NCBI GenBank assembly: GCA_963842085.1
Contig: CAWJET010000002.1
Location: forward strand, 32,001 to 96,000
Direction of reading: 5' to 3'
From: an uncultured delta proteobacterium
GTDB taxonomy: Bacteria; Desulfobacterota; Binatia; Binatales; Binataceae
Length of the DNA: 64,000 bases
Numbering within the stretch: position 1 is the first letter of the stretch; every line of letters starts with the position of its first letter. This document shows, piece after piece, positions 2,967-26,146 of the stretch. The notes below the pieces were generated by a model. The model ran no database searches, had not been told where the DNA came from, and saw nothing but the letters and a program-made list of their open reading frames with translations. The position numbers were made by a program, and so were the translations under genes.

Positions 2967-4529
2967 ATGTCAACTGGACGAATTTTCTCGATGTCTCTGT
3001 GCACACTTGGTGTCGTGACGTTATTGCTGGGGGGACTGGCGCGCGCGGCTGACAGCGACGGCAGCGACGCCGCCGCTCTAAAGGAGATCAGAAGCGAGAT
3101 GCGCCAACTGCGGGAAGATCGCAAGCGTGACCGCGCGGTGATCCGCTCGCTCGAGATCAAGGTGCAGCAACTCGAGACCAAAGATCAAAAGGTCGAGAGC
3201 ACTACGCAGCAACTGCAGAACACCGATCAGAAGCTCAAGGAGACAACGCTCGAGCTGCAGCAGACCAACCAGCAGGTGAAGACCCTGCAGACGAAGGTCG
3301 ATGCGCCGATCGCCGAGTCGCAGTTTGGCGACGCCGTCCAGCGATACCTCGGATCGCACTCGTTCACGGTGACCGGGGCGGCCGGCGGCAACTTCATCTA
3401 TGACCAGCAAAGCGGCGCACTCGACGACCTGCATCACGCGTCGCAGAACTCGTTCTTCTTCGACTGGGAGCCGATGATCCTGTATCGCCCGGCTGACTGG
3501 ATCCTGTTCCAAGGGGTGTTCAGCGCGGGGTTTGGTGCAACCGGGACGGGAACCGACCTGTCCACGGCAGATTTCCAGATTTTTCTCAACAAGTACATGA
3601 CGGTCGTGGCCGGGCTTTTCGATCAGCCATTCGGCGACTGGTACGAGGCCCAGAGCCCGATGTGGGTGAACCGGTTTGTCACGGCGCCGCTGCCGTTCGG
3701 AGTCGAGCCGGTAGTGCCGCCAGGCGAGCTTGGACTCCAGCTTCGCGGCGGCATGCAGTTCGGCCAGCTCGGTCAGGATTTCGACTACACGGTCTGGGGT
3801 GGAAACGGCCCCAGCTACAGCTCGGATGTCCTTGGCGCCACGGTTTCGAGCCCGTCCTCGGTCGCGTCCACCGAGACCAACGGCAAGTCGATCGGCGCGC
3901 GCTTTCGCATCTATCCGCTCCCGGTCGATACGGAGTGGGGGCGGCTCGAGCTCGGCGCGTCCACCTACAACGGCAAGTGGGCGAACGGAAACTGGTTCAA
4001 CTCGTGGGGCGTCGATTTCAACTACTTCGTAGGCAACCTGCAGACCCGCGGTGAATGGATGCAATCGTACCGCCAGATGCCCGATGGGCAGGCCTCCGAC
4101 AATCGCCAGGGATGGTACGTGCAAGCCGGCTACTTCCTGACCGGGCTCAAAGTCCCGGGTCTGCCCGACGTGATCAATAACTACCTCCGTCGATTCGAGC
4201 CGTTGGTGCGTTACTCGGGAGTTAACCAGCGCGGTGTTTCAACCGACGATATCGAGGGCGCCACCGGCGTCGGTTTGGGCGGCACGCAGGTGGGACTGGT
4301 TCCCGATTTCGGCATCAACGGGTCGCCGGCGACGTACGCACCGCATTCGCGCGAAGTGGCGCTGGGACTCGACTATTGGATCGCGCCGTCGATCGTCTGG
4401 CAGAACGAATTCGACATCGAGCTGCCGCATGCGGGAGGAGTATTCGTGTCGTCAACCGGCGCGGAGACGCCCGCGGGTTCAATTCCGAACGATCACGCGT
4501 TCCTTAGCCAATTCACGATTGGATTCTGA
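2967..4529 (+). CDS. Outer-membrane beta-barrel (porin-like) with N-terminal coiled coil
   Basis: Signal peptide, Q/E/K-rich coiled coil, amphipathic strands, terminal QFTIGF. Confidence 0.75.
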   Translation: MSTGRIFSMSLCTLGVVTLLLGGLARAADSDGSDAAALKEIRSEMRQLREDRKRDRAVIRSLEIKVQQLETKDQKVESTTQQLQNTDQKLKETTLELQQTNQQVKTLQTKVDAPIAESQFGDAVQRYLGSHSFTVTGAAGGNFIYDQQSGALDDLHHASQNSFFFDWEPMILYRPADWILFQGVFSAGFGATGTGTDLSTADFQIFLNKYMTVVAGLFDQPFGDWYEAQSPMWVNRFVTAPLPFGVEPVVPPGELGLQLRGGMQFGQLGQDFDYTVWGGNGPSYSSDVLGATVSSPSSVASTETNGKSIGARFRIYPLPVDTEWGRLELGASTYNGKWANGNWFNSWGVDFNYFVGNLQTRGEWMQSYRQMPDGQASDNRQGWYVQAGYFLTGLKVPGLPDVINNYLRRFEPLVRYSGVNQRGVSTDDIEGATGVGLGGTQVGLVPDFGINGSPATYAPHSREVALGLDYWIAPSIVWQNEFDIELPHAGGVFVSSTGAETPAGSIPNDHAFLSQFTIGF

Positions 4530-16518: not shown

Positions 16519-18021
16519 TCATTCGATGCCGTACTTGGCGATCTTGGCGTAGAGCTTTTTGCGCGAGATCTTGAGCAGCTTGGCGGCTTGGAGCTTGTTG
16601 CCCTCGGTCGCCTCGAGCGCGCCGCGGATAAGGTCTTGTTCGGCATCGGCGAAACTGCCCACCGGAATTCTTCTGCCGATGGGCGCGCTTTGGCCCGCGC
16701 TCAAACCGGAGATCGACGCCGGCAGGTCCGGCAATCGGATCACGGGCGAGCGGCTGAAGGTGAATGCGGTCTCGATCGCATTGGCAAGTTCGCGGACGTT
16801 GCCCGGCCACGAATAGCGCCGCATCGCTTCGAGCGCTTCGTTTTCGATCCCGGTGACGGGGACCGCCCGCATCTGCCGCGCGTTGAACAGCTCGATGAAA
16901 TGTTCGACCAGCAGCGCCACGTCCTCGGCGCGCTCCCGCAGCGGCGGTATGTGAATGACGCCCGCCTGGAGACGGTAGTAGAGGTCGTCGCGAAGCCGCC
17001 CCGCCTCGACCGCTTCCTGCGGCTCGCGGTTGGTCGAGGCGATCAGGCGCACGTCCACCGCAATCTCTTTGGTCGAGCCTACCGGACGCACCGTGCGCTC
17101 CTGCAGAGCGCGCAGCAGCTTGCTCTGCGTATCGGCGCTCATCTCCGTTACTTCGTCGAGGAACAGAGTCCCGCCCTCAGCCGCGCGGAACAGCCCCAGG
17201 TACTCGGTGTTCGCTCCGCTGAATGCGCCGCGCTTGTATCCGAACAGCTCGCTCTCGATCAGGTCCCTCGGTATAGCCGCGCAGTTGAGCGCGACGAACG
17301 GCGCCGCCGGTTGCGGGCCGCATTCGTGAATGGCGTGCGCCACCAGTTCCTTGCCCGTGCCGCTTTCGCCGACAATTAGAATCGTGCCGCGCGTGGCGCC
17401 TGCCGATTCCACCCGGTCGTACAACTGCCGCATTGCCGCACTGGCGCCGACCAGGCCATGGAAACGGCTGCGGGATTGATTTGGCATCCCGCCGGCCTCG
17501 CGTTCGAGCGCCAGGATTCGCGCTCCGGAGACGGCGGTCTTCGACCGGAAATAGGTATCTGCGAGCACGATCATTCGTATGTGGCTCAGTTTGTCGAACG
17601 AGTGGTAGGTCCGTGGCATCACCGGCGGAAACGATGGAAACGCGGTGGCCGCGCTCTCTTCGAACAGATGTATCGAGACGATCAGCTCTGAGAAGGGGAC
17701 GCCGCGCTCGGCGAGATCCTCCGCAACTCGGGCGATGTCGGCGGCGAAGCGGTCCATGTCTTTGTCGAGCAGATCCTTCAGCGTGGCATCGAGCTCGCCG
17801 CCGAAGATCGCCATGAATTCCACCCTGGTCAGCGCGCGTGTGTCGGCAAAGTGCAGCACGTAGAGCTGGTACCAGTGTTCCAGCACGCGGTCGCGATTTT
17901 TCTGGACGGACTCCAGGACCGGACGAAGGTCGTCGAGCTCCGCGTCCCACAGTAAGTGAAAATAGCGGGGCGTTCCGCTTGGCAGTGAAGCAGGAGGCGC
18001 TGAGGTGGTGTTGGGTTTCAT
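16519..18021 (-). CDS. sigma54 enhancer-binding protein with helical (RsbRD_N/globin-like) sensor domain
   Basis: GESGTGKE, ESELFG..GAFSGA, LFLDEV, WPGNVREL, Fis-type HTH; start uncertain. Confidence 0.9.
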   Translation of the reverse strand: MKPNTTSAPPASLPSGTPRYFHLLWDAELDDLRPVLESVQKNRDRVLEHWYQLYVLHFADTRALTRVEFMAIFGGELDATLKDLLDKDMDRFAADIARVAEDLAERGVPFSELIVSIHLFEESAATAFPSFPPVMPRTYHSFDKLSHIRMIVLADTYFRSKTAVSGARILALEREAGGMPNQSRSRFHGLVGASAAMRQLYDRVESAGATRGTILIVGESGTGKELVAHAIHECGPQPAAPFVALNCAAIPRDLIESELFGYKRGAFSGANTEYLGLFRAAEGGTLFLDEVTEMSADTQSKLLRALQERTVRPVGSTKEIAVDVRLIASTNREPQEAVEAGRLRDDLYYRLQAGVIHIPPLRERAEDVALLVEHFIELFNARQMRAVPVTGIENEALEAMRRYSWPGNVRELANAIETAFTFSRSPVIRLPDLPASISGLSAGQSAPIGRRIPVGSFADAEQDLIRGALEATEGNKLQAAKLLKISRKKLYAKIAKYGIE

Positions 18022-18155
18022 TCCTTGAGGATTGGCTCGAAAGGCGTCAGTCGTGTGAAAAACCGCTACATGCGGGGACAAACCTCTTTAACATATGTTC
18101 CCCCGAAAACCAAAATTGCGTGTATTTCAGCGGCGTTTCGGCGGAACAGCTGCGC

Positions 18156-18171
18156 TGGCATGCTTCAAGCA
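18156..18171 (+). promoter_or_regulatory. sigma54 promoter for the receiver-like gene
   Basis: TGGCATGCTTCAAGCA (GG-N10-GC). Confidence 0.55.
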
Positions 18172-18207
18172 ATAACCAAGCTCAGATTGCCGAATAGCGT
18201 GGAATCA

Positions 18208-18693
18208 ATGCTTGAGCCGTACAATCAGCTTAAACCGGGACCAGACCGCCGCGGCAGAGGAAGCCGCAATTTCGCTCCTCGGGTGGCGCTTGCGCAAGCG
18301 GCGGACTCGGCTGGAACCGGCGCCGGCCCGCGGGTTATAGCGGTTTTTTCGCGCGACCAATCGATCGTTCGGATGATCGCCGAGGCGCTGAACGATTCGT
18401 GGGTCATGGTCAACTTTACCAATCCGCAGGAGGCGCGCGCCTCGCTGCTGAAGCCGGGCATCAAGATAGTCGTAATCGACGACGAGGTGCTCGAGGAATC
18501 CAGCCGTGGCTGGCTGCTCGACCAGGTGCGGAAGTGGGCGCCCCACGCACTTGTCGCCTACATCGCGGCGATTCACAGTCACGCCACGGAGCGGCGCGCG
18601 CGTAGATATCGCGTCCAGTACTACACCTCGAAACCGATGGATCGAGAACGCACTCTCAGGGTCTTGCATTCGTTCGAGCGCGCGGCCCGTTAG
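18208..18693 (+). CDS. Atypical stand-alone receiver-domain protein
   Basis: IVVIDD and YTSKP in a REC-like pattern; N-terminal acidic pair missing. Confidence 0.6.
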   Translation: MLEPYNQLKPGPDRRGRGSRNFAPRVALAQAADSAGTGAGPRVIAVFSRDQSIVRMIAEALNDSWVMVNFTNPQEARASLLKPGIKIVVIDDEVLEESSRGWLLDQVRKWAPHALVAYIAAIHSHATERRARRYRVQYYTSKPMDRERTLRVLHSFERAAR

Positions 18694-18707
18694 CCGCCAG
18701 GCGTGCG

Positions 18708-19112
18708 CTACTTCTGCTGCAGGCTCTCGACGTATCGCGCCATAGACTCGATTCTTCGTTTCACTGCGGCATTGCTTTCCGGAGTGAACTCCTCGCCCGG
18801 TTTTTGCAGGGTTGTCCCCAGGAAGGGCATCTGGATGCGCTCGTGAGACGGAACAACTTTGCGGCCGTCGATCGTATCCACGACCTCCTGGAAAGGAAAC
18901 TTGCCGCCATTTTCCCTGGTCAGCAGAGTAAGGTCGGACGGTGGCGGAGTCATTGGAATGGTCGAGACTGAGGGGCCGTTACCTTTGCCGTCGGGCCCGT
19001 GGCATTCGGCGCAGTAACTATCGTAATCCTGCTTTCCGGACTGAGCTACGGCAGGCCCGGCGGTAAGCGCGAGCGCTACCATCAGCAGCAGCAATGCGGT
19101 CGCCCTCTGCAT
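18708..19112 (-). CDS. Monoheme cytochrome c (same family as 12190..12615)
   Basis: Signal peptide, CAECHG.DGKGNGP, IDGR...MPF. Confidence 0.88.
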   Translation of the reverse strand: MQRATALLLLMVALALTAGPAVAQSGKQDYDSYCAECHGPDGKGNGPSVSTIPMTPPPSDLTLLTRENGGKFPFQEVVDTIDGRKVVPSHERIQMPFLGTTLQKPGEEFTPESNAAVKRRIESMARYVESLQQK

Positions 19113-19243
19113 AGTGAGCACTATGCCGACCAGGGGAATCGCGATGCCATCATGTTGATTTGTCACTGTGCGGGTCCTTCGTAGTGATTCCGTTGGCGCC
19201 ATGACTGGAGCGATCGGCTACATGGTGCGCCAGTTCGCGAGCG

Positions 19244-19732
19244 TCACTGGATGACGCGAATGGTTGGCGTCGCCACCGGCTTCGGAGTTGACCGGATATG
19301 CTCGAATACGGTCTTGTTGGCGGTGGCTAGTTGACCCACGGCGGCCAGGATTCTATCCGACATCTCGCCGGTGGCGTCCTTGCCGACTCTAAACACGGAA
19401 GAATCTTCGTACACTTCGCCCGGCAGTCGGTCGGCATAGATGGTGAACGCGACCGACACCGCAGACATTGTGCCAGTGAGCTTGCTGTCGATGCCCGGAA
19501 GTCCCGTGAACAAATCCATGCACCAGAGATGCACTCCGATGCCGTATTTGTCGGTGTGATCGACGAGCATATATGCGGTCGAGTCTTTGACTTTGTCCTT
19601 GAAGGCGGAGCAAAAGTCTCCGCCGACCTGATCGGAGCAGTGACAATCGACGAAGACGCTCAAACGGTTGTCGTTTTCGTTGCCGGCCGCCCGGCCATTT
19701 GTGGGCGAGACAAGCAGCAGCAGGGCCAGCAT
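19244..19732 (-). CDS. Secreted hypothetical protein, Cys-containing
   Basis: Hydrophobic N-terminus, DCHC...C...C; start uncertain. Confidence 0.6.
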   Translation of the reverse strand: MLALLLLVSPTNGRAAGNENDNRLSVFVDCHCSDQVGGDFCSAFKDKVKDSTAYMLVDHTDKYGIGVHLWCMDLFTGLPGIDSKLTGTMSAVSVAFTIYADRLPGEVYEDSSVFRVGKDATGEMSDRILAAVGQLATANKTVFEHIRSTPKPVATPTIRVIQ

Positions 19733-19902
19733 TCCTAGCGAGGCTGCGAGATTCGTTTTCAAAGTAAGTGGCAGGGTAGCGGAGTGACGGCGATCCGGGC
19801 AAATGCTTCGTTTCACGCATCGCGACATCGCTCTCGCCGCATGATAGCATTTCAGGGTTATTTTGAACGAGGGAGTTTGAACATTATCCGATGTTATTGA
19901 AT

Positions 19903-20979
19903 ATGAGTGACGCAGGGCGCCGCCCTCAATCCGTGCGGCGTGTCGTTTTCGTTGTTGCCGCCGTCGCATTTGTGTTCGCAATCACCTCCGTGCCTCACGC
20001 ATGGGCCGACGATCCCAACGCGGTTGTCGCCACCGTCGGCGATCATAAGATCAGCGAGAAGGACCTCGATGCGAAGGTCAAACCGCAGCTCGAGCAGATG
20101 CGTGCGGCGCTCGAGAAGCGCGTCGATCAACTGATCGCCGATAAGACCTTCGATCTCAGGCGCCAGACGCTCGAGTCGATGACCGATGACTATCTGATCG
20201 AGCAGGCCGCCCAGCGCGACAAGCTGAGCGTCAATGACTACCTCAAGCAAGAGTACTCCGGCAAATCGGCGGTGACCGAAGCCGCCGCGAAGAAGTTTTA
20301 CGATCAGAACAAGGGCGCCGGTACCGCGCCGTTCGACCAGATCAAGCCGCAGCTGATGCAGATGTTGAACCGCCAGGCGCTGCTCCAACGCCTGCGCAAG
20401 GATGAGCCGGTCAAGATTTTGCTCGAGCCTCAGCGCGTAGCGGTGAACAGCAGCGGGCATCCGGTGCTCGGCGCCAAGGATGCGCCCGTCACCATCGTCG
20501 AGTTCACCGACTTCCAGTGTCCGTTTTGCAAGGCGACCGAAGCCACTCTGAAGCAGTTGCGCGAGAAATATGGCGACAAGATTCGCCTCGTGCATATGGA
20601 CTTCCCACTGCCGTTCCATTCGCATGCGCTTGACGCCGCGAAGGCCGCGCGATGCGCCAACGAGCAGGGCAAGTTCTGGCCCTACCGCGACGCGCTGTTC
20701 GCCAATCAAGGCAAGCTGGCGCCCGCCGACCTGAAGGCTACGGCCAAGACGCTCGGCATGAATACCACTGAGTTCGACGCGTGCTTTGACAAGGCGAAGT
20801 ACGACAGCCAGATCAAGAGCGATCAGGCTGCCGGCGAGAAAGCCGGCGTGGACGGGACCCCGGCGTTCTTCATTGATGGCCGGCCTCTGACCGGGGCGCA
20901 GCCCATTCCCAAGTTCGAAGAGCTGATCAACGACGAGCTGGCTAACGGCGGCGCCACCAAGCAGGCGTCGGCACGTTAG
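19903..20979 (+). CDS. DsbA-family oxidoreductase with SurA-like N-terminal domain
   Basis: FTDFQCPFC, DFPL, GVDGTPAFFI. Confidence 0.92.
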   Translation: MSDAGRRPQSVRRVVFVVAAVAFVFAITSVPHAWADDPNAVVATVGDHKISEKDLDAKVKPQLEQMRAALEKRVDQLIADKTFDLRRQTLESMTDDYLIEQAAQRDKLSVNDYLKQEYSGKSAVTEAAAKKFYDQNKGAGTAPFDQIKPQLMQMLNRQALLQRLRKDEPVKILLEPQRVAVNSSGHPVLGAKDAPVTIVEFTDFQCPFCKATEATLKQLREKYGDKIRLVHMDFPLPFHSHALDAAKAARCANEQGKFWPYRDALFANQGKLAPADLKATAKTLGMNTTEFDACFDKAKYDSQIKSDQAAGEKAGVDGTPAFFIDGRPLTGAQPIPKFEELINDELANGGATKQASAR

Positions 20980-21009
20980 ATTTTTCTCGACCTGCAGTTA
21001 CTTATGTTT

Positions 21010-21047
21010 TCCGGCGCCGACTTCGAGCCGGCGCCGGATTTTCTTTT
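21010..21047 (+). terminator. Rho-independent terminator
   Basis: TCCGGCGCCG/CGGCGCCGGA stem followed by TTTTCTTTT. Confidence 0.8.
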
Positions 21048-21178
21048 GGCGTGCGCAGGGCCAAAATGACCCGCGCTTCCAACTTAAACGATGGTCGGCT
21101 TGCCTTCCTCAGTCGTTTAACCTTAAATTCATTCAGCATTGATCAATTTATTGGGAGGCCGGTGGGTTCATCGATTTT

Positions 21179-21619
21179 ATGGCGATTAGCTTTCCTTCGA
21201 CCGAATATTTCGAGGCGCTTAAGGCGCAGATGGCCGCGAACGAGGAAAAGTTCCGGCGCTTGGGGTTTATCGACACGACCTTCGGCGTCAGCGTCGGCCT
21301 CAACGGCAAGGCGCGCAACTTCGTGCTCGAGTTCGAGGTCTTCGACCTCAAGAACATCAGCGAAGTGCCGGCGATCGATCTCAAGAAAGTCGACTTCAAG
21401 ATCGAGGGCGACTCGCGCGTGTGGCGCGAGATGATCGAGAACATCCGGCGCAACGGCGAGGCGGATTCCTCGCACGACATCAATACGCTGGCGCATTTCG
21501 GCGAGCGTCTGAAGATTGTCTATGACGATCCCGACGGTCACGACAAACTTTACCGGTTCATGGAATCGATCCAGGAATTTTTTGACCTGTCGAGCAAGCT
21601 CGAAGTGAGTTTCAACTAG
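21179..21619 (+). CDS. SCP2-like (lipid-binding fold) hypothetical protein
   Basis: FPS.EYF N-terminus and DFKIEG...W.EM pattern. Confidence 0.55.
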   Translation: MAISFPSTEYFEALKAQMAANEEKFRRLGFIDTTFGVSVGLNGKARNFVLEFEVFDLKNISEVPAIDLKKVDFKIEGDSRVWREMIENIRRNGEADSSHDINTLAHFGERLKIVYDDPDGHDKLYRFMESIQEFFDLSSKLEVSFN

Positions 21620-21641
21620 CAAGCGCGGAGGCGCGGCGACG

Positions 21642-22787
21642 ATGGCATACCTTTCGACCACGGATTTCAGCCAGGACAAGGACTTCATCGACAAGTGGCT
21701 CTATACGATAAGGACCGGCGAGATGGACCTGTCGTGGATGAAGTCGGCGACCGAGAAAGTAAGTCCCGAAGAAGCCAACCCGCGCCGCGGGTTGACCTAT
21801 CGCGATCTTAACCTCGGAACCTATGGCTACACCGACATACCCGAAAAGGTCCGCTCGAATCGATCCTATGCGCCGCGCGGCGCCGAGATTCCCGAGGGCG
21901 TGCCCGATGCGCAGCCGTGGGTCTCGCGCAAGAGCGAGCTATGGGCGTTCAACACCGAGAGCTATTACGAGGAAGCGGTGTCGCGCCAGTGGAATGCTAC
22001 CACCGACATTCCGTGGGACCGCCTGGACGGGGTCGAGCTGCCCGAGGTGACGGGCAAGGCGCTGTCGCAGTTGATGACGTTTCTGACCGAAGTGGAAATG
22101 ATCGCGACCGACACGCCGGCGATGTGGCTGCCGCGGCTGAATCCCGACTTTATCGAGGTGCGCTCCTTTATCGCGGCGCAGGCGATGGACGAGGCGCGTC
22201 ACGCGGAGGTGTTCCGCAAGCGCGCGCTCACCACCGGCTGGGGCCTGATGCAGGCGAGCCCGATCAACGAGATGGCGCTGAAGCATCTGCGCGACGCCGA
22301 TTCGTTCAGCGAGATGTCGGTGGCGCTGCACCTGGTGGCGGAGGGCAACGTGCTGACGCTGTTCCGCTTCAGCGAATACCTGTCGCCGACCGATGTTGAC
22401 AAGAAAATTTTCAGGCTCGTGATGCAGGACGAAGCGCGGCACGTCGGCTACGGCATGCAGCATTTCAAATACGTGCTCGAGCACTTTCCCGAGAAGCGCG
22501 AAGTGCTGCACGCGCATCTGGACGAAGCCGAAAACATTTCGTTTGCCGGCGCGGCCGCGACCGAACTGACCGAGGCGTTTATTATTCTGGCCGGCGGCGG
22601 GCTCAAGAAGGAAAATATCGAACAAGGCATTCGCGTCACTACCCAGTTCAATCTCAAGCAGATGCAGGAGCATTTCGAGCGCCTGGATAAGTGCGGGATG
22701 CCGGAGCGCCGGGAGCGTTCGAAGCTCTTTATGATGTACGAGATGGGACGCGCCGCGGCCGAAGCTGCGGGAATCAAGCTGAACTAG
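21642..22787 (+). CDS. Ferritin-like diiron protein with intact ligands
   Basis: TEVE, DEARH, AEG, DEARH. Confidence 0.85.
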   Translation: MAYLSTTDFSQDKDFIDKWLYTIRTGEMDLSWMKSATEKVSPEEANPRRGLTYRDLNLGTYGYTDIPEKVRSNRSYAPRGAEIPEGVPDAQPWVSRKSELWAFNTESYYEEAVSRQWNATTDIPWDRLDGVELPEVTGKALSQLMTFLTEVEMIATDTPAMWLPRLNPDFIEVRSFIAAQAMDEARHAEVFRKRALTTGWGLMQASPINEMALKHLRDADSFSEMSVALHLVAEGNVLTLFRFSEYLSPTDVDKKIFRLVMQDEARHVGYGMQHFKYVLEHFPEKREVLHAHLDEAENISFAGAAATELTEAFIILAGGGLKKENIEQGIRVTTQFNLKQMQEHFERLDKCGMPERRERSKLFMMYEMGRAAAEAAGIKLN

Positions 22788-22803
22788 ATCTTTGACTCCG
22801 GTT

Positions 22804-22837
22804 CCCCTTCCCGCGTGGGAAAGGGTCAGGGGTTAGG
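22804..22837. repeat. REP-like palindromic element
   Basis: CCCCTTCCCGCGTGGGAAAGGGTCAGGGGTTAGG resembles the common ccctctccc...gggagaggg..agggtgagg repeat. Confidence 0.55.
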
Positions 22838-22887
22838 CTAGCCAGACCTGCAGCGCATTCTGAGGAAGTTCTAACGAGGCAGCTTAA

Positions 22888-24003
22888 GTGGCATTTTACG
22901 CTGACAAGGATTACACAGTCGATGAGACGGTCCTCCAAGCCGCGCAGAAGGTGATGGAGGGGCACTTGGGCCTGCATTGGTACGATGCCAAGACCGAACA
23001 CATAGCGGGGCACGCGTCGGACCCAAAGCGGGGACTTACCTACCAGGACCTCGACATCGGCAGCTACGGCTACACCAGCATTCCTGAGGACGTCCGCACC
23101 AGCCAGTCGATGGTGTCGCGCGGGAGTGAGAAGGTCGGCAAGCTGCCCGACATGGGCTACGTCGTGAATCGCAAATCGGATGTATGGTCCGACAACGTCG
23201 CCGAGCTTTACGAAGAGGACAAGGCTCGGCGATGGGTCCCGGCGATCGACATCCCATGGACCGAACTGCATGCGCATCCGCTGGCGCCCGAACTCGAGAA
23301 GGCGTGCGCGCAGCTATACACGTTTCTGCAGGAATGCCAGATCGTGTCGATGGACTTCCCCTCGAAGTGGGTGGCGCTGATCAACCAGGACTTCCTCGAG
23401 CTGAAGAGCTGGATGTGCGCGCAGATGCTCGACGCGTCGCGGCTGTTCGAGGTGTTTCGCAAGCGCGCGCTCTTCGGCGGGGCCGGACTCGGGCGCGCCA
23501 GTGCGACGGCGGAGCAGGGACTCAAGGAATGGCTGTGGGCGGATCAGTTTCCGCAGGGCTCCGTTTCGATCAACTTGTCGCTCGCGGGATTCCTGCTGGT
23601 CGTATATCGGCAGATCGCCGCATTTGCGCCGACTAACGTCGATCGCAGGATCATGCGCTACGCGATGCAGGACGCGGCACGGCAGACCGCGTATGGACTT
23701 GGACAACTGCGCTACCATTTGAAGCATCGCCCGCTCGAAGCGAGCGCGATTGAGGGCTATCTCGATCACACCGAGCACGCGCTGCTCGGACTGATTGGGA
23801 GTCCCGAACTGCTGGAGCCGATGATCATCGTCTGCGGCGGCGGACTCGAAAAGGCGCAGGTCGATAAGGGCCGCGTCGCGACCGCGAAGTTCATCAAGCT
23901 GGTCGTACGCGAGTACATGGAGCGAATCGCGGCGGCGGGCCTGGCAGGACACGCCAAGCGCAGCAAGATCCCCACCCTCGTAGATCGCATCGCCGCCGCA
24001 TAG
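22888..24003 (+). CDS. Ferritin-like paralog lacking diiron ligands
   Basis: Shares RGLTY.DL..G.YGY and DIPW with the upstream gene; DEARH replaced by DASRL and DAARQ. Confidence 0.8.
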   Translation: MAFYADKDYTVDETVLQAAQKVMEGHLGLHWYDAKTEHIAGHASDPKRGLTYQDLDIGSYGYTSIPEDVRTSQSMVSRGSEKVGKLPDMGYVVNRKSDVWSDNVAELYEEDKARRWVPAIDIPWTELHAHPLAPELEKACAQLYTFLQECQIVSMDFPSKWVALINQDFLELKSWMCAQMLDASRLFEVFRKRALFGGAGLGRASATAEQGLKEWLWADQFPQGSVSINLSLAGFLLVVYRQIAAFAPTNVDRRIMRYAMQDAARQTAYGLGQLRYHLKHRPLEASAIEGYLDHTEHALLGLIGSPELLEPMIIVCGGGLEKAQVDKGRVATAKFIKLVVREYMERIAAAGLAGHAKRSKIPTLVDRIAAA

Positions 24004-24112
24004 GTTTTCCCCTCTCTGTTTCTTCCCCTCTCCCTGCGATTGATCTCGACAGGGTTCTTAACAGTCGCGATGCGTGTTTTCTGGCTTATGCGCGACTGCT
24101 AAAGTCTTTGGC

Positions 24113-26146
24113 ATGCCAAATCGTGGTTCTGTTATGATTGCCGGCGCGCCGGAGACGGCGGATTGTTCCCTTGGGGAGCAGACCGGCGCTCCCGACGACC
24201 CCGACCAACCTGGCCGCGGCTTTTTCGAGCGCCTCTTTGATCGCTTCGTTCCGCGAACTGCCCTGGCGCGCTTCCTCGGTTACGTGCGGCCGCATCTGTG
24301 GCTGGTGGCGGGCGGCTCCGTCATGGGCATCCTGAAATTCACGCTGCCGCTCGCGTTTCCGCTCGCCTTCAAATACGTGTTCGACGTTTTACTGGTTCCG
24401 GAGGCGCATCCTGAGCGTTTGAACTCGATGATCGACGGGTGGTGCCGCGCAATTGCCGCGACGCTGCATCTGGGCGTGGGCTCTGCTGCCAAGCTCGAAG
24501 CTTTGACCGTTGCGATGTTCGCGCTGTTCCTCGTCCAGGCGATCGCGACCTACTATCGCAATTACTGGGCGAGCATGGCGGGGCATCGCTTGATCTTCGA
24601 CCTGCGCTACGCGCTGTACAAGCACATGCAGCGCCTATCGCATTCGTTTTTCGATCGCACGACGTCGGGTGCAGTGGTCGCGCGGTTCATCTCCGACATC
24701 TCGATGGCGCAGAACTTCGTCGGCTCGGCGATGATCAACATCTGGATGGACGGCGTGTCGCTGGGTTTCGTGATTTGGCTGCTGTTCTCTCTGAACGTGC
24801 GGCTGGCGTGGATTTCGCTGATCATCGTTCCATTTTATGTCGCGGTGATCAGGATTCTGTCGCCGAAGATCAAGGAGACGAGTCACGACCTGCAGGAAGT
24901 GGTCGAGGAGTTTTCGGGCGAGTTGCAGGAGCGTGTCGCTGGCATCTCGACCGTCAAATCGTTCGCGCGCGAAGCCGACGAGGCGCGCCGGTTCCATCAG
25001 CGCACAACCGAAATGTACGACCTGACGATCGAGAGCGTGAAGCTTTCGTCAACCCATCAGATGTTCACCGAGTTCATCTCGCGCGGCGCTCCGCTGATCG
25101 TGATCTGGGCCGGCGCGCTGATGATCATGCACGGCAAAATGACCATCGGCACCGTGGTCGCGTTCTTCGGCCTTCTCCCAGCGCTCTACCTGCCGCTGCA
25201 GCGCTTCTCGGAGTTGTCGGTGATTGTGGCGACAGCCCTGGCGGCCATCGAGCGGATCTTCGCGTTCTTCGACGAGACGCCCGAGGTGCATGACCGGTCC
25301 GGCGCGTCAGCGCTGAAAGTGAAGCGCGGACTGGTCGAGATCGAGCATCTGCGCTTTGGCTACAAGCCGCTCGACGGCGGGCCGCTGCGCATCACGCTGG
25401 ACGACGTGAACCTTGCCGTGCCCGCAGGGACAACGGTGGCGCTGGTTGGGCGTTCGGGGGCCGGCAAGACCACGCTCGCCAGCCTGATTCCGCGATTTTA
25501 CGAGCTCGCCGCCGGCCGCATTCTGATCGACGGCACCGACATTTCGACGGTGACACTGAAGTCGTTGCGCGATTCGATCGGGATCGTGCCGCAGGACGCG
25601 ATCCTGTTCAGCGCGTCGATTCGCGAGAACGTGCAATACGGGCAGCCCGGCGCGCCCGATGGGAACATCTGGCGAGCGCTCGAGCAGGCCAACATCCGCG
25701 ACTTCGTCGAGTCGCTGCCCGACAGGCTCGACACGATGATAGGCGAGGGCGGAGTGCGGCCTTCGACCGGCCAGCGGCAGCGCCTGGCGCTCGCGCGCGT
25801 GTTTCTGAAAAACCCGCCGATTTTGATTCTCGACGAAGCGACGTCGGGACTCGACTCGGAAGTCGAAAACCTGATTCACGACGCGGTGCGCCGCCTGATG
25901 AAGGGACGGACGTCGTTCGTGATTGCGCATCGGCTCGCCAGCGCCGTCGATGCGGACGTGATCGTGGTGCTCGATCGCGGGAAGATCGTCGAGGTCGGCT
26001 CGCATGCGGAGCTGGTGAAGCGCGCCGGCGTCTATTCACAACTCTTCAACGAGCAGACTCGCAAGCTGCGCCTGACGCCCGAGCATATCGCGCGTGCGCC
26101 TGGCTCGTTGAGTCCTGCGCCGGTTGCAGAAGATCGTACTGACTAG
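24113..26146 (+). CDS. ABC exporter half-transporter (Sav1866/MsbA-like)
   Basis: TM domain, GRSGAGKT, PSTGQ signature, ILILDEATS, IAHRL. Confidence 0.92.
   Translation: MPNRGSVMIAGAPETADCSLGEQTGAPDDPDQPGRGFFERLFDRFVPRTALARFLGYVRPHLWLVAGGSVMGILKFTLPLAFPLAFKYVFDVLLVPEAHPERLNSMIDGWCRAIAATLHLGVGSAAKLEALTVAMFALFLVQAIATYYRNYWASMAGHRLIFDLRYALYKHMQRLSHSFFDRTTSGAVVARFISDISMAQNFVGSAMINIWMDGVSLGFVIWLLFSLNVRLAWISLIIVPFYVAVIRILSPKIKETSHDLQEVVEEFSGELQERVAGISTVKSFAREADEARRFHQRTTEMYDLTIESVKLSSTHQMFTEFISRGAPLIVIWAGALMIMHGKMTIGTVVAFFGLLPALYLPLQRFSELSVIVATALAAIERIFAFFDETPEVHDRSGASALKVKRGLVEIEHLRFGYKPLDGGPLRITLDDVNLAVPAGTTVALVGRSGAGKTTLASLIPRFYELAAGRILIDGTDISTVTLKSLRDSIGIVPQDAILFSASIRENVQYGQPGAPDGNIWRALEQANIRDFVESLPDRLDTMIGEGGVRPSTGQRQRLALARVFLKNPPILILDEATSGLDSEVENLIHDAVRRLMKGRTSFVIAHRLASAVDADVIVVLDRGKIVEVGSHAELVKRAGVYSQLFNEQTRKLRLTPEHIARAPGSLSPAPVAEDRTD

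Follow-up and report, generated by a model that had tools for sequence, protein, structure and literature searches.

A candidate SCP2-associated dimetal oxygenase with a maintained, ligand-less paralog in an uncultured soil bacterium of the Binataceae

Why would a bacterium encode two homologous ferritin-like proteins side by side, one with a complete set of metal ligands and one that has lost them, and place the gene of a small SCP2-like protein in front of both? The question is raised by three genes in a stretch of 64,000 nucleotides (nt) of soil-derived DNA, hereafter the window, from contig CAWJET010000002.1 of an uncultured member of the Binataceae. Some of the most demanding oxidations in biology, among them those of methane, alkanes and arenes as well as N-oxidation, are the work of ferritin-like dimetal enzymes. 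The three genes, here called S, A and B, lie on the forward strand as uninterrupted open reading frames (ORFs). S (21179-21619, 146 residues) is the first gene of the unit and is followed after 22 nt by A (21642-22787, 381 residues), the putative catalytic subunit, and after another 100 nt by B (22888-24003, 371 residues, GTG start), the putative structural subunit. An earlier interpretation made from the letters of this DNA, the sequence-only reading, had placed the set at exactly these coordinates (21179-24003). Our analysis leads us to consider it fairly probable that S, A and B form one conserved unit, an uncharacterized soluble O2-activating dimetal oxygenase with a hydrophobic substrate and with B as structural partner.

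The metal site of A is complete. In the family alignment, the predicted ligands are E152 (codon 22095-22097), the first ExxH within D183-E184-A-R-H187 (E184 to H187, 22191-22202), the third-helix residue E234 (22341-22343) and the second ExxH within D263-E264-A-R-H267 (E264 to H267, 22431-22442), all on the forward strand. The resulting pattern E152/E184/H187/E234/E264/H267 (EEHEEH) is present in 74 out of 74 full-length catalytic sequences of the tree set. E152 rather than the nearby E150 is the likely first ligand, because the latter position is occupied by Q in seven catalytic homologs, while position 152 is E wherever the ligand set is complete, as well as in the two A fragments that span the column. 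The residue four positions after H187, which we take from the motif of the ribonucleotide reductase (RNR) small subunit R2 to be the position of the radical tyrosine, is a phenylalanine (F191) and is nearly invariant in the family.

To which family does A belong? For S, A and B alike, every Pfam and NCBIfam model stays below its cut-off. The closest sub-threshold scores for A are those of DUF455 (PF04305, 21.1 bits with a gathering cut-off of 34.3), Ribonuc_red_sm (PF00268, the RNR small chain, 20.0 versus 33.6 bits) and the NCBIfam model of R2lox (NF006200, 26.4 versus 194 bits). Phenol_Hydrox-type models match neither A nor B (E-value ≤ 0.1) nor any of 45 family members (E-value ≤ 0.01), PaaA_PaaC is likewise absent from A, B and the 45 members, and none of the eight window proteins scanned against Pfam has a Paa-family match. 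When the profile built on the 45-sequence alignment was searched against solved structures, the best chains were those of a VlmB homolog (6d9f/8wvr, E-value 1.1e-10, profile positions 140-285), with R2lox chains at about 7e-7.

The predicted structure of A (AlphaFold2 (AF2), mean predicted local distance difference test (pLDDT) 93.9, predicted template modelling score (pTM) 0.92) is a helical bundle. Foldseek ranks R2lox, RNR R2 and VlmB first, with template modelling (TM) scores of about 0.5-0.6 and E-values of 1.5e-4 to 5.5e-4 for R2lox. Alignment of the model with structure representatives in VIA-align returned a near tie at the top (Z 21-24, 13-17% identity) between the VlmB homolog 6d9f (Z 23.6, root-mean-square deviation (rmsd) 2.9 Å, 257 residues aligned), R2lox 4hr0_A (Z 22.4, rmsd 3.4 Å, 257 residues), the alpha chain of the methane monooxygenase hydroxylase (MMOH; 1fyz_A, Z 22.1), the ADO-like 5ux2 (Z 22.0) and R2 itself (6y2n, Z 21.5); the beta chain of phenol hydroxylase (2inn_C) reaches Z 21.9. 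PaaC (3pvr_B, Z 17.0 over 200 residues) falls below this group, as do BoxB (3per, Z 16.1) and AurF (2jcd, Z 14.8). The comparison with the PaaA/PaaC, BoxB, MMOH and AurF structures, which the earlier interpretation had proposed, thus yielded distant fold likeness and no family assignment. Its statement that the proteins have no obvious match to known families also stands: no match is above threshold, and the structural neighbours are ties at the level of the superfamily. By sequence profile and predicted fold, A appears to be a member of the ferritin-like dimetal-carboxylate superfamily, in the size class of R2 and the bacterial multicomponent monooxygenases (BMM), and of no described family.

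Two other functions of A have to be weighed against these data. A could be a non-enzymatic or protective ferritin-like protein, devoted to iron handling or peroxide detoxification or resembling R2lox without turnover, with B and S as mere neighbours. The fold is indeed common to bacterioferritin, Dps and rubrerythrin-type proteins (Z 13-14), and the physiological function of R2lox is itself unsettled. However, A aligns with R2/BMM-type enzymes over 250-290 residues at Z 20-24, well above the Dps and ferritin rows, the linkage of S and B with A persists across phyla and whichever of the two gene orders is present, and the ferredoxin genes found beside the pair in relatives point to redox turnover. 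We regard a protective role as improbable. An N-oxygenase or oxidase of VlmB/AurF type, whose target would be a secondary-metabolite amine or hydrazine and not the C-H bond of a lipid, has marginally more in its favour. Apart from the profile match and the Z score of the VlmB homolog, sub-threshold matches to AurF (PF11583) occur in 8 of the 45 family members (E-value ≤ 0.01), although A itself has none, and one relative carries an AurF-like third gene downstream. On the other hand, identity to VlmB is only 17-19%, its Z score is tied with those of R2lox, MMOH, ADO and R2, and no biosynthetic-cluster-type gene was found among the annotated neighbour clusters of the 80 loci surveyed below. Moreover, a quarter of the genomes sampled from the class carry the unit, a frequency more in keeping with a housekeeping or catabolic role than with a rare natural product. 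We therefore judge the N-oxygenase alternative quite unlikely.

The second ferritin-like protein, B, is clearly a paralog of A (37% identity over 362 residues, E-value 6e-90, BLASTP), in agreement with the tandem homologous pair described before. Scans of the Pfam and NCBIfam libraries with B gave a spurious match only. At the ligand columns of A, B has Q151, D182-A183-S-R-L186, A233 and D262-A263-A-R-Q266, so that the six ligand positions (Q151, A183, L186, A233, A263, Q266) are all substituted. The sequence-only reading was right that the ligands of B are lost; the glutamate of the motif ECQ, which it gave for B, aligns with E150 of A. Since E152, which corresponds to Q151 of B, is the likely ligand, B has lost all six. 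The substitutions vary among 18 full-length B sequences (in the first ExxH, for example, A/L, W/L or G/L). One subclade retains the first ExxH and has lost the other four ligands, and no B-type sequence keeps the full set.

Is B then a decaying duplicate without function? Besides the loss of all metal ligands, B evolves about two to four times faster than A, and two genomes bear damaged copies: an ortholog with an internal TGA (G114:C6:37033-38130) and fragments only, with TGA stops (G076:C4:86461-88613), both of which may reflect local decay or assembly errors. The remaining evidence goes in the opposite direction. The ratio of non-synonymous to synonymous substitution rates (dN/dS, Nei-Gojobori) is 0.10-0.24 for B, as compared to 0.02-0.11 for A and 0.04-0.18 for S. 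In pairs with the window, dS is 0.7-1.5 and near saturation; in three closer pairs (dS 0.35-0.82), dN/dS is 0.10-0.15 for B and 0.02-0.05 for A. An alignment of 20 B-type sequences, with identities as low as 37%, retains 56 invariant columns. Orthologs of B (E-value ≤ 1e-100, 47-93% identity) were detected in 36 of the 151 genomes that we sampled from the class. The sample includes an unpublished genome (G079) with a single match at 40% identity, on which none of our conclusions depends. In 32 of these 36 genomes, B has an A-like gene as its immediate neighbour; in three the A-like gene lies within 4 kb, and in one on another contig. The reading frame of B is complete and unbroken in 35 of the 36 genomes, as it is wherever a contig end does not truncate the locus, and in the tree the B clade parallels that of A. 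The dN/dS and co-occurrence checks proposed earlier thus speak against decay or separation of the second gene. Sequence comparison indicates that B is a maintained gene under purifying selection, and decay is very improbable.

The tree also bears on the origin of the pair. We inferred a quick IQ-TREE phylogeny of 100 sequences, after 11 of 111 were dropped for being shorter than 300 or longer than 470 residues, with branch support from the Shimodaira-Hasegawa-like approximate likelihood ratio test (SH-aLRT). The A proteins (17 sequences) and B proteins (18 sequences) of loci with the S-A-B arrangement form sister clades with similar internal branching, and their joint clade has an SH-aLRT support of 100. 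This topology suggests that A and B stem from one duplication. The degenerate paralogs of a mostly chloroflexotal clade (eight sequences on long branches) group separately, beside their own catalytic partners. Because the label 'degenerate' requires two changes on the tree, the combination of a catalytic protein with a dead paralog arose at least twice in the family.

The small protein S owes its assignment to its predicted fold. Its AF2 model (pLDDT 93.3) matches the Thermus SCP2 proteins 1wfr and 2cx7 in Foldseek with TM scores of 0.69-0.74 (0.69/0.70 for 1wfr). VIA-align superposes it on 2cx7_B with Z 13.9 and rmsd 2.2 Å over 123 of 130 residues, and all of its top 10 rows are SCP2-fold proteins; the SCP2 domain of UbiJ (6h6n) is also among the structural matches (Z 7.7). 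Sequence searches are far less telling. S has no Pfam match at E-value ≤ 0.1, SCP2 (PF02036) included, only 1 of 38 S homologs matches the SCP2 model (E-value 0.015), and the profile of these 38 homologs reaches 2cx7 in the Protein Data Bank at an E-value of only 0.006. The earlier label 'SCP2-like' is thus borne out by the fold and has no counterpart in a Pfam match; judging from the model, S has the SCP2 alpha/beta fold.

The most conserved positions of S are polar and lie in the C-terminal helix, where D122, R126 and Q132 are invariant among the 38 sequences. These residues would suit a protein-protein surface, and both the size of S and its operon position resemble those of small monooxygenase effectors. 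S could therefore be a cofactor-less effector or gating protein, in the role of MmoB, DmpM or T4moD, which docks on the A/B hydroxylase to control O2 activation. However, the fold is that of SCP2, the top Foldseek rows and the top 10 VIA-align rows are all SCP2-fold lipid or isoprenoid binders, and an MmoB-type chain appears in neither list. We consider the effector role unlikely, though less so than either alternative function of A; the roles of effector and carrier are not mutually exclusive. In complex prediction of A, B and S, with S as the scored partner, the score was 0.64-0.69; it was 0.00 when S was replaced and 0.85 when A was replaced by an unrelated protein, and we use these scores as an argument neither for nor against binding.

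The association between S and A extends far beyond the window. A word-indexed search returned more than 1,800 relatives of A from Binatia and other metagenome-assembled genomes, and the named ones are labelled only 'ferritin-like domain-containing' or 'hypothetical'. An exhaustive search found 847 clusters (50% identity) at E-value ≤ 0.001, 102 of them at E-value ≤ 1e-30, and S has 578 relatives. In species-representative genomes, where the locus search used a 13-sequence alignment, at least 579 relatives of A are present among the 600 pattern matches listed, and we surveyed the best 80 of those loci by ORF calling, BLAST and hidden Markov models (HMMs). S lies beside a gene of the A family in 57 of the 80 loci; the 23 loci without S comprise 20 of the third architecture described below and three cut by a contig end. 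The genome of the window has exactly two S homologs, both next to A paralogs. Across phyla, S is the most constant neighbour of A, in support of the place that the sequence-only reading had given it in the unit.

Three architectures can be distinguished. Type I (21 of the 80 loci: L009-L026, L033, L044 and L082) has the order S-A-B, or S-B-A in L023-L025, and carries the labels Binatia, Myxococcota, Thermodesulfobacteriota and 'Spirochaetaceae'. Of these 21 loci, 20 contain B, the exception (L021) ending inside A, and S occurs in all 19 loci whose upstream side lies on the contig. Type II, from Binatia, Actinomycetota, Acidimicrobiia and Gammaproteobacteria, consists of A followed by S, without B. 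In Type III, mostly from Chloroflexota, A either occurs singly or precedes a paralog with 28-31% identity. The genome of the window also possesses a second, B-less copy of the module, of Type II (L002; contig C1, 425498-429484 of G000). In the coordinates of that locus, an A paralog (1411-2532, 47% identical to A) is followed by an S paralog (2532-2972, 36% identical to S) and by the gene of a luciferase-like oxidoreductase, a monooxygenase (3029-3982).

The survey also gave an indication of the electron donor. A gene for a 4Fe-4S ferredoxin lies beside the pair in 24 of the 80 loci: in 20 Type II loci, a dicluster ferredoxin of about 140 residues (Pfam) is encoded directly 3' of S, and in four Type I loci (L017-L020) a ferredoxin of 117-151 residues (Pfam) is encoded divergently upstream of S. 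The sequence-only reading had stated that no reductase is adjacent and had called for a neighbourhood survey for ferredoxins. The statement holds for the window, where no reductase gene occurs in the 64 kb, but not for the relatives. Because relatives encode a ferredoxin, the missing redox partner is a feature of the locus in this clade and not of the family.

Taken together, these observations allow a mechanism to be proposed. A would bind two metal ions (Fe/Fe or Mn/Fe), would be reduced by a ferredoxin encoded elsewhere in its own genome and would activate O2 to oxidize a hydrophobic substrate. B would replace the second protomer of an ancestral A2 dimer and serve in structure, assembly or docking, for which the beta chain of MMOH, PaaC and yeast Rnr4 offer parallels; Type II loci, which have no B, would still use A2. 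S would bind the greasy substrate or product and present it to the enzyme. The sequence-only reading had proposed an undescribed heteromeric enzyme that acts on a lipid, sterol or acyl-CoA delivered by the SCP2 subunit, and our results support this proposal in part. A more specific version of this reading appears possible to us rather than probable, and we advance it tentatively: a novel class of three-component soluble dimetal oxygenase that would occur widely among soil Binatia, Actinomycetota, Myxococcota and Gammaproteobacteria. In such an enzyme, a carrier with the SCP2 fold may pass a long hydrophobic substrate (an alkane, or a lipid of fatty acyl, isoprenoid or hopanoid type) on to a heterodimer made up of a catalytic and a ligand-less R2-like chain; a 4Fe-4S ferredoxin would be the donor, and the pairing of catalytic and dead paralogs would have been invented twice.

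Several results weigh against the proposed oxygenase. The window holds no small ferredoxin gene within its 64 kb, by HMM or Cys-motif search, and the genome lacks an ortholog of the Type II ferredoxin, the best match having an E-value of 2.9e-6 over 57 residues. In 20 loci, nearly all from Chloroflexota, A occurs without detectable S, and S is therefore not obligatory for the family. An SCP2 fold alone does not show lipid binding, and the profile search places an N-N/azoxy-forming enzyme, not one acting on lipids, nearest among the solved homologs. Finally, the genes beyond S, A and B are not conserved across clades. They include short-chain dehydrogenase/reductase, acyl-CoA dehydrogenase, AMP-binding, luciferase-like, thiolase, P450 and thiamine pyrophosphate-enzyme genes, and no pathway context therefore fixes the substrate. 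The only recurring hint of a lipid among the neighbours is given by membrane FA_desaturase-family genes near Type II pairs, in neighbour cluster c10 (six loci, the clade of the paralog in the genome of the window) and in c44 (three actinobacterial loci). Among the close relatives of the L002 copy, this gene lies on the opposite strand.

Where does the unit begin and end? On the 5' side, a terminator-like hairpin on the forward strand (21011-21047), 3' of a DsbA-like gene, marks the boundary of S-A-B. As read from the sequence, it consists of a 9-bp G+C stem (21011-21019/21029-21037) with a 9-nt loop, followed by ATTTTCTTTT. It is missing from the consensus terminator scan because that scan permits loops of 3-8 nt only. 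Overall, consensus promoter and terminator matches between 20800 and 26400 were at or below shuffled expectation, and an Rfam scan of 20900-24200 returned no match at E-value ≤ 0.1. A stem-loop considered in the 100-nt A-B spacer was rejected, as its folding energy equals that of shuffled sequences (z -0.14); a relative has a spacer of 39 nt in this place.

The flanking genes stand outside the unit. The upstream DsbA/SurA_N-type gene (19891-20979, Pfam) ends 200 nt before S, is separated from it by the hairpin and is syntenic in seven close loci (cluster c6), all labelled Binataceae or unclassified delta-proteobacteria. Downstream, a gene for an MsbA-like ABC exporter (24074-26146; TIGR02203, 456.6 bits with a cut-off of 602) starts 70 nt after B, but among close relatives only the window and L009 have it directly 3' of B. 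We rejected both genes as members of the module. Further upstream, the minus strand (16519-19981) encodes a sigma-54 enhancer-binding protein of 520 residues, a c-type cytochrome of 164 residues and a protein of 245 residues without Pfam matches. A scan for the sigma-54 promoter consensus gave 25 matches across the window compared with 26 expected. None of them falls in the interval from the DsbA-like gene to S, and we therefore see no link between the nearby sigma-54 activator and the unit.

RNA libraries provide a weak hint of transcription. Soil metatranscriptome contigs with 90-99% similarity to the locus, which derive from the libraries of relatives, cover S and A in all four runs (from four studies) and B in three. 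One contig bridges S and A (X20, record 27) and another A and B (X15), the latter with a spacer of 39 nt in place of 91 nt; positions 23928-24100 have no contig cover, to which we attach no meaning. Since carry-over of DNA is not excluded, the support from these contigs is only weak, and they prove neither transcription nor a single transcript.

Some members of the family depart from the architectures above. A TusA-like N-terminal domain (PF01206, best E-value 3.2e-7) and a common C-terminus '...LHTPNFM' occur in 9 of the 45 family members (for example P0278, P0285, P0288, P0301, P0341, P0344, P0350 and P0383). The extension of P0259, also about 100 residues long, is unlike theirs. From these sequences, the A family seems to recruit several different accessory domains. 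In one Type I subclade, a third and more distant ferritin-like gene lies 1-3 kb 3' of S-A-B (L018, 7154-8263; L019, 5549-7306; L020, 10570-11949), the one in L020 being the AurF-like gene mentioned above (PF11583, E-value 8.8e-11). In a locus labelled Azotimanducaceae (L085, 6974-10057), A and a degenerate paralog are followed by two consecutive S-like genes. In L015 (6538-8149), a single ORF of 498 residues joins the C-terminal portion of S in frame to A (S HMM, E-value 1e-34), which is more likely due to a frameshift error of the assembly than to a real fusion. A search for fused S proteins gave 1 match in 616 candidates (306 residues, 40% of S covered) and hence no evidence of S-A or S-B fusion, which is itself weak evidence.

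The family of A is large, common in abundant uncultured soil lineages and unnamed in Pfam and NCBIfam. The pairing of a live with a dead chain is of a known kind; what is new is an SCP2-fold component in company with a putative dimetal-carboxylate oxygenase and its degenerate paralog. If S supplies the metal site with a lipid or hydrocarbon, the unit would represent a new soluble route for oxidizing greasy substrates, with relevance to soil carbon turnover and possible use as a biocatalyst scaffold. The family may also serve as a natural experiment, in which putative heterodimers of catalytic and dead paralogs would have evolved repeatedly from a homodimeric ancestor.

How does the unit compare with known systems? 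R2lox (Geobacillus kaustophilus 4hr0 and Mycobacterium tuberculosis 3ee4) has the same R2-type ferritin-like fold as A (Foldseek target-normalized TM score about 0.6), and in both the first ligand is Glu and not Asp. R2lox co-crystallizes with a fatty acid, which provides a link to hydrophobic ligands. Identity between the two is 14-21%, the R2lox family model stays far below its cut-off, and about 100 residues at the N-terminus of A are specific to its family. To our knowledge, R2lox is a homodimer without a degenerate paralog or SCP2 partner. VlmB-type azoxy synthase, or 'protein 60' (6d9f, 8wvr), aligns with the same DEARH-type motifs as A but works on a hydrazine in an antibiotic pathway, and the genes around S-A-B show no such context. 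We know of no SCP2 or degenerate-paralog partners of VlmB.

The multicomponent monooxygenases (MMOH 1fyz/1mhy, phenol hydroxylase 2inn, ToMO 1t0q and T4MO 3dhg) resemble the unit in more respects. They too combine a catalytic chain with a homologous ligand-less one, an E..ExxH..E..ExxH site and a small accessory protein, and a ferredoxin-type donor is found in relatives of the unit; their hydroxylases align with A at Z 19.6-22.1. The differences are equally clear. Their alpha chains have about 500 residues compared with 381 in A, which has no Phenol_Hydrox match, their effector has the MmoB fold whereas the only small protein of the unit has that of SCP2, and their ferredoxin is of the Rieske type whereas that of the relatives is a 4Fe-4S dicluster protein. 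Unlike in these systems, no gamma-chain or reductase gene accompanies S-A-B. PaaA/PaaC (3pvr) is likewise a pair of active and ligand-less paralogs with small partners, but its Z score with A is lower, and the neighbours in the window are DsbA-like and MsbA-like genes rather than Paa genes.

In the sequence-based comparisons that we ran, the unit fell outside the known families, the matches to the AurF/VlmB type indicating distant homology rather than membership, and the predicted fold of its accessory protein differs from those of these systems. Literature searches, which largely left out subscription journals, returned nothing on the A family, nor on any ferritin-like oxygenase with an SCP2 partner. 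The closest parallels concern the separate parts. In the quinone hydroxylases, a separate lipid-binding protein presents the greasy substrate, as in COQ7-COQ9 and UbiJ/UbiT, and the UbiJ SCP2 domain is among the structural matches of S; A has no relation to Coq7 in Pfam, however, and no quinone-biosynthesis genes were seen beside the unit. In yeast RNR, the R2-fold catalytic protomer Rnr2 is paired with Rnr4, a ligand-less paralog that serves folding and cofactor assembly. A differs from R2 in lacking the radical tyrosine and in scoring below the cut-off of the RNR small-chain model; for the role proposed here for B, the pair Rnr2/Rnr4 is the closest analogy.

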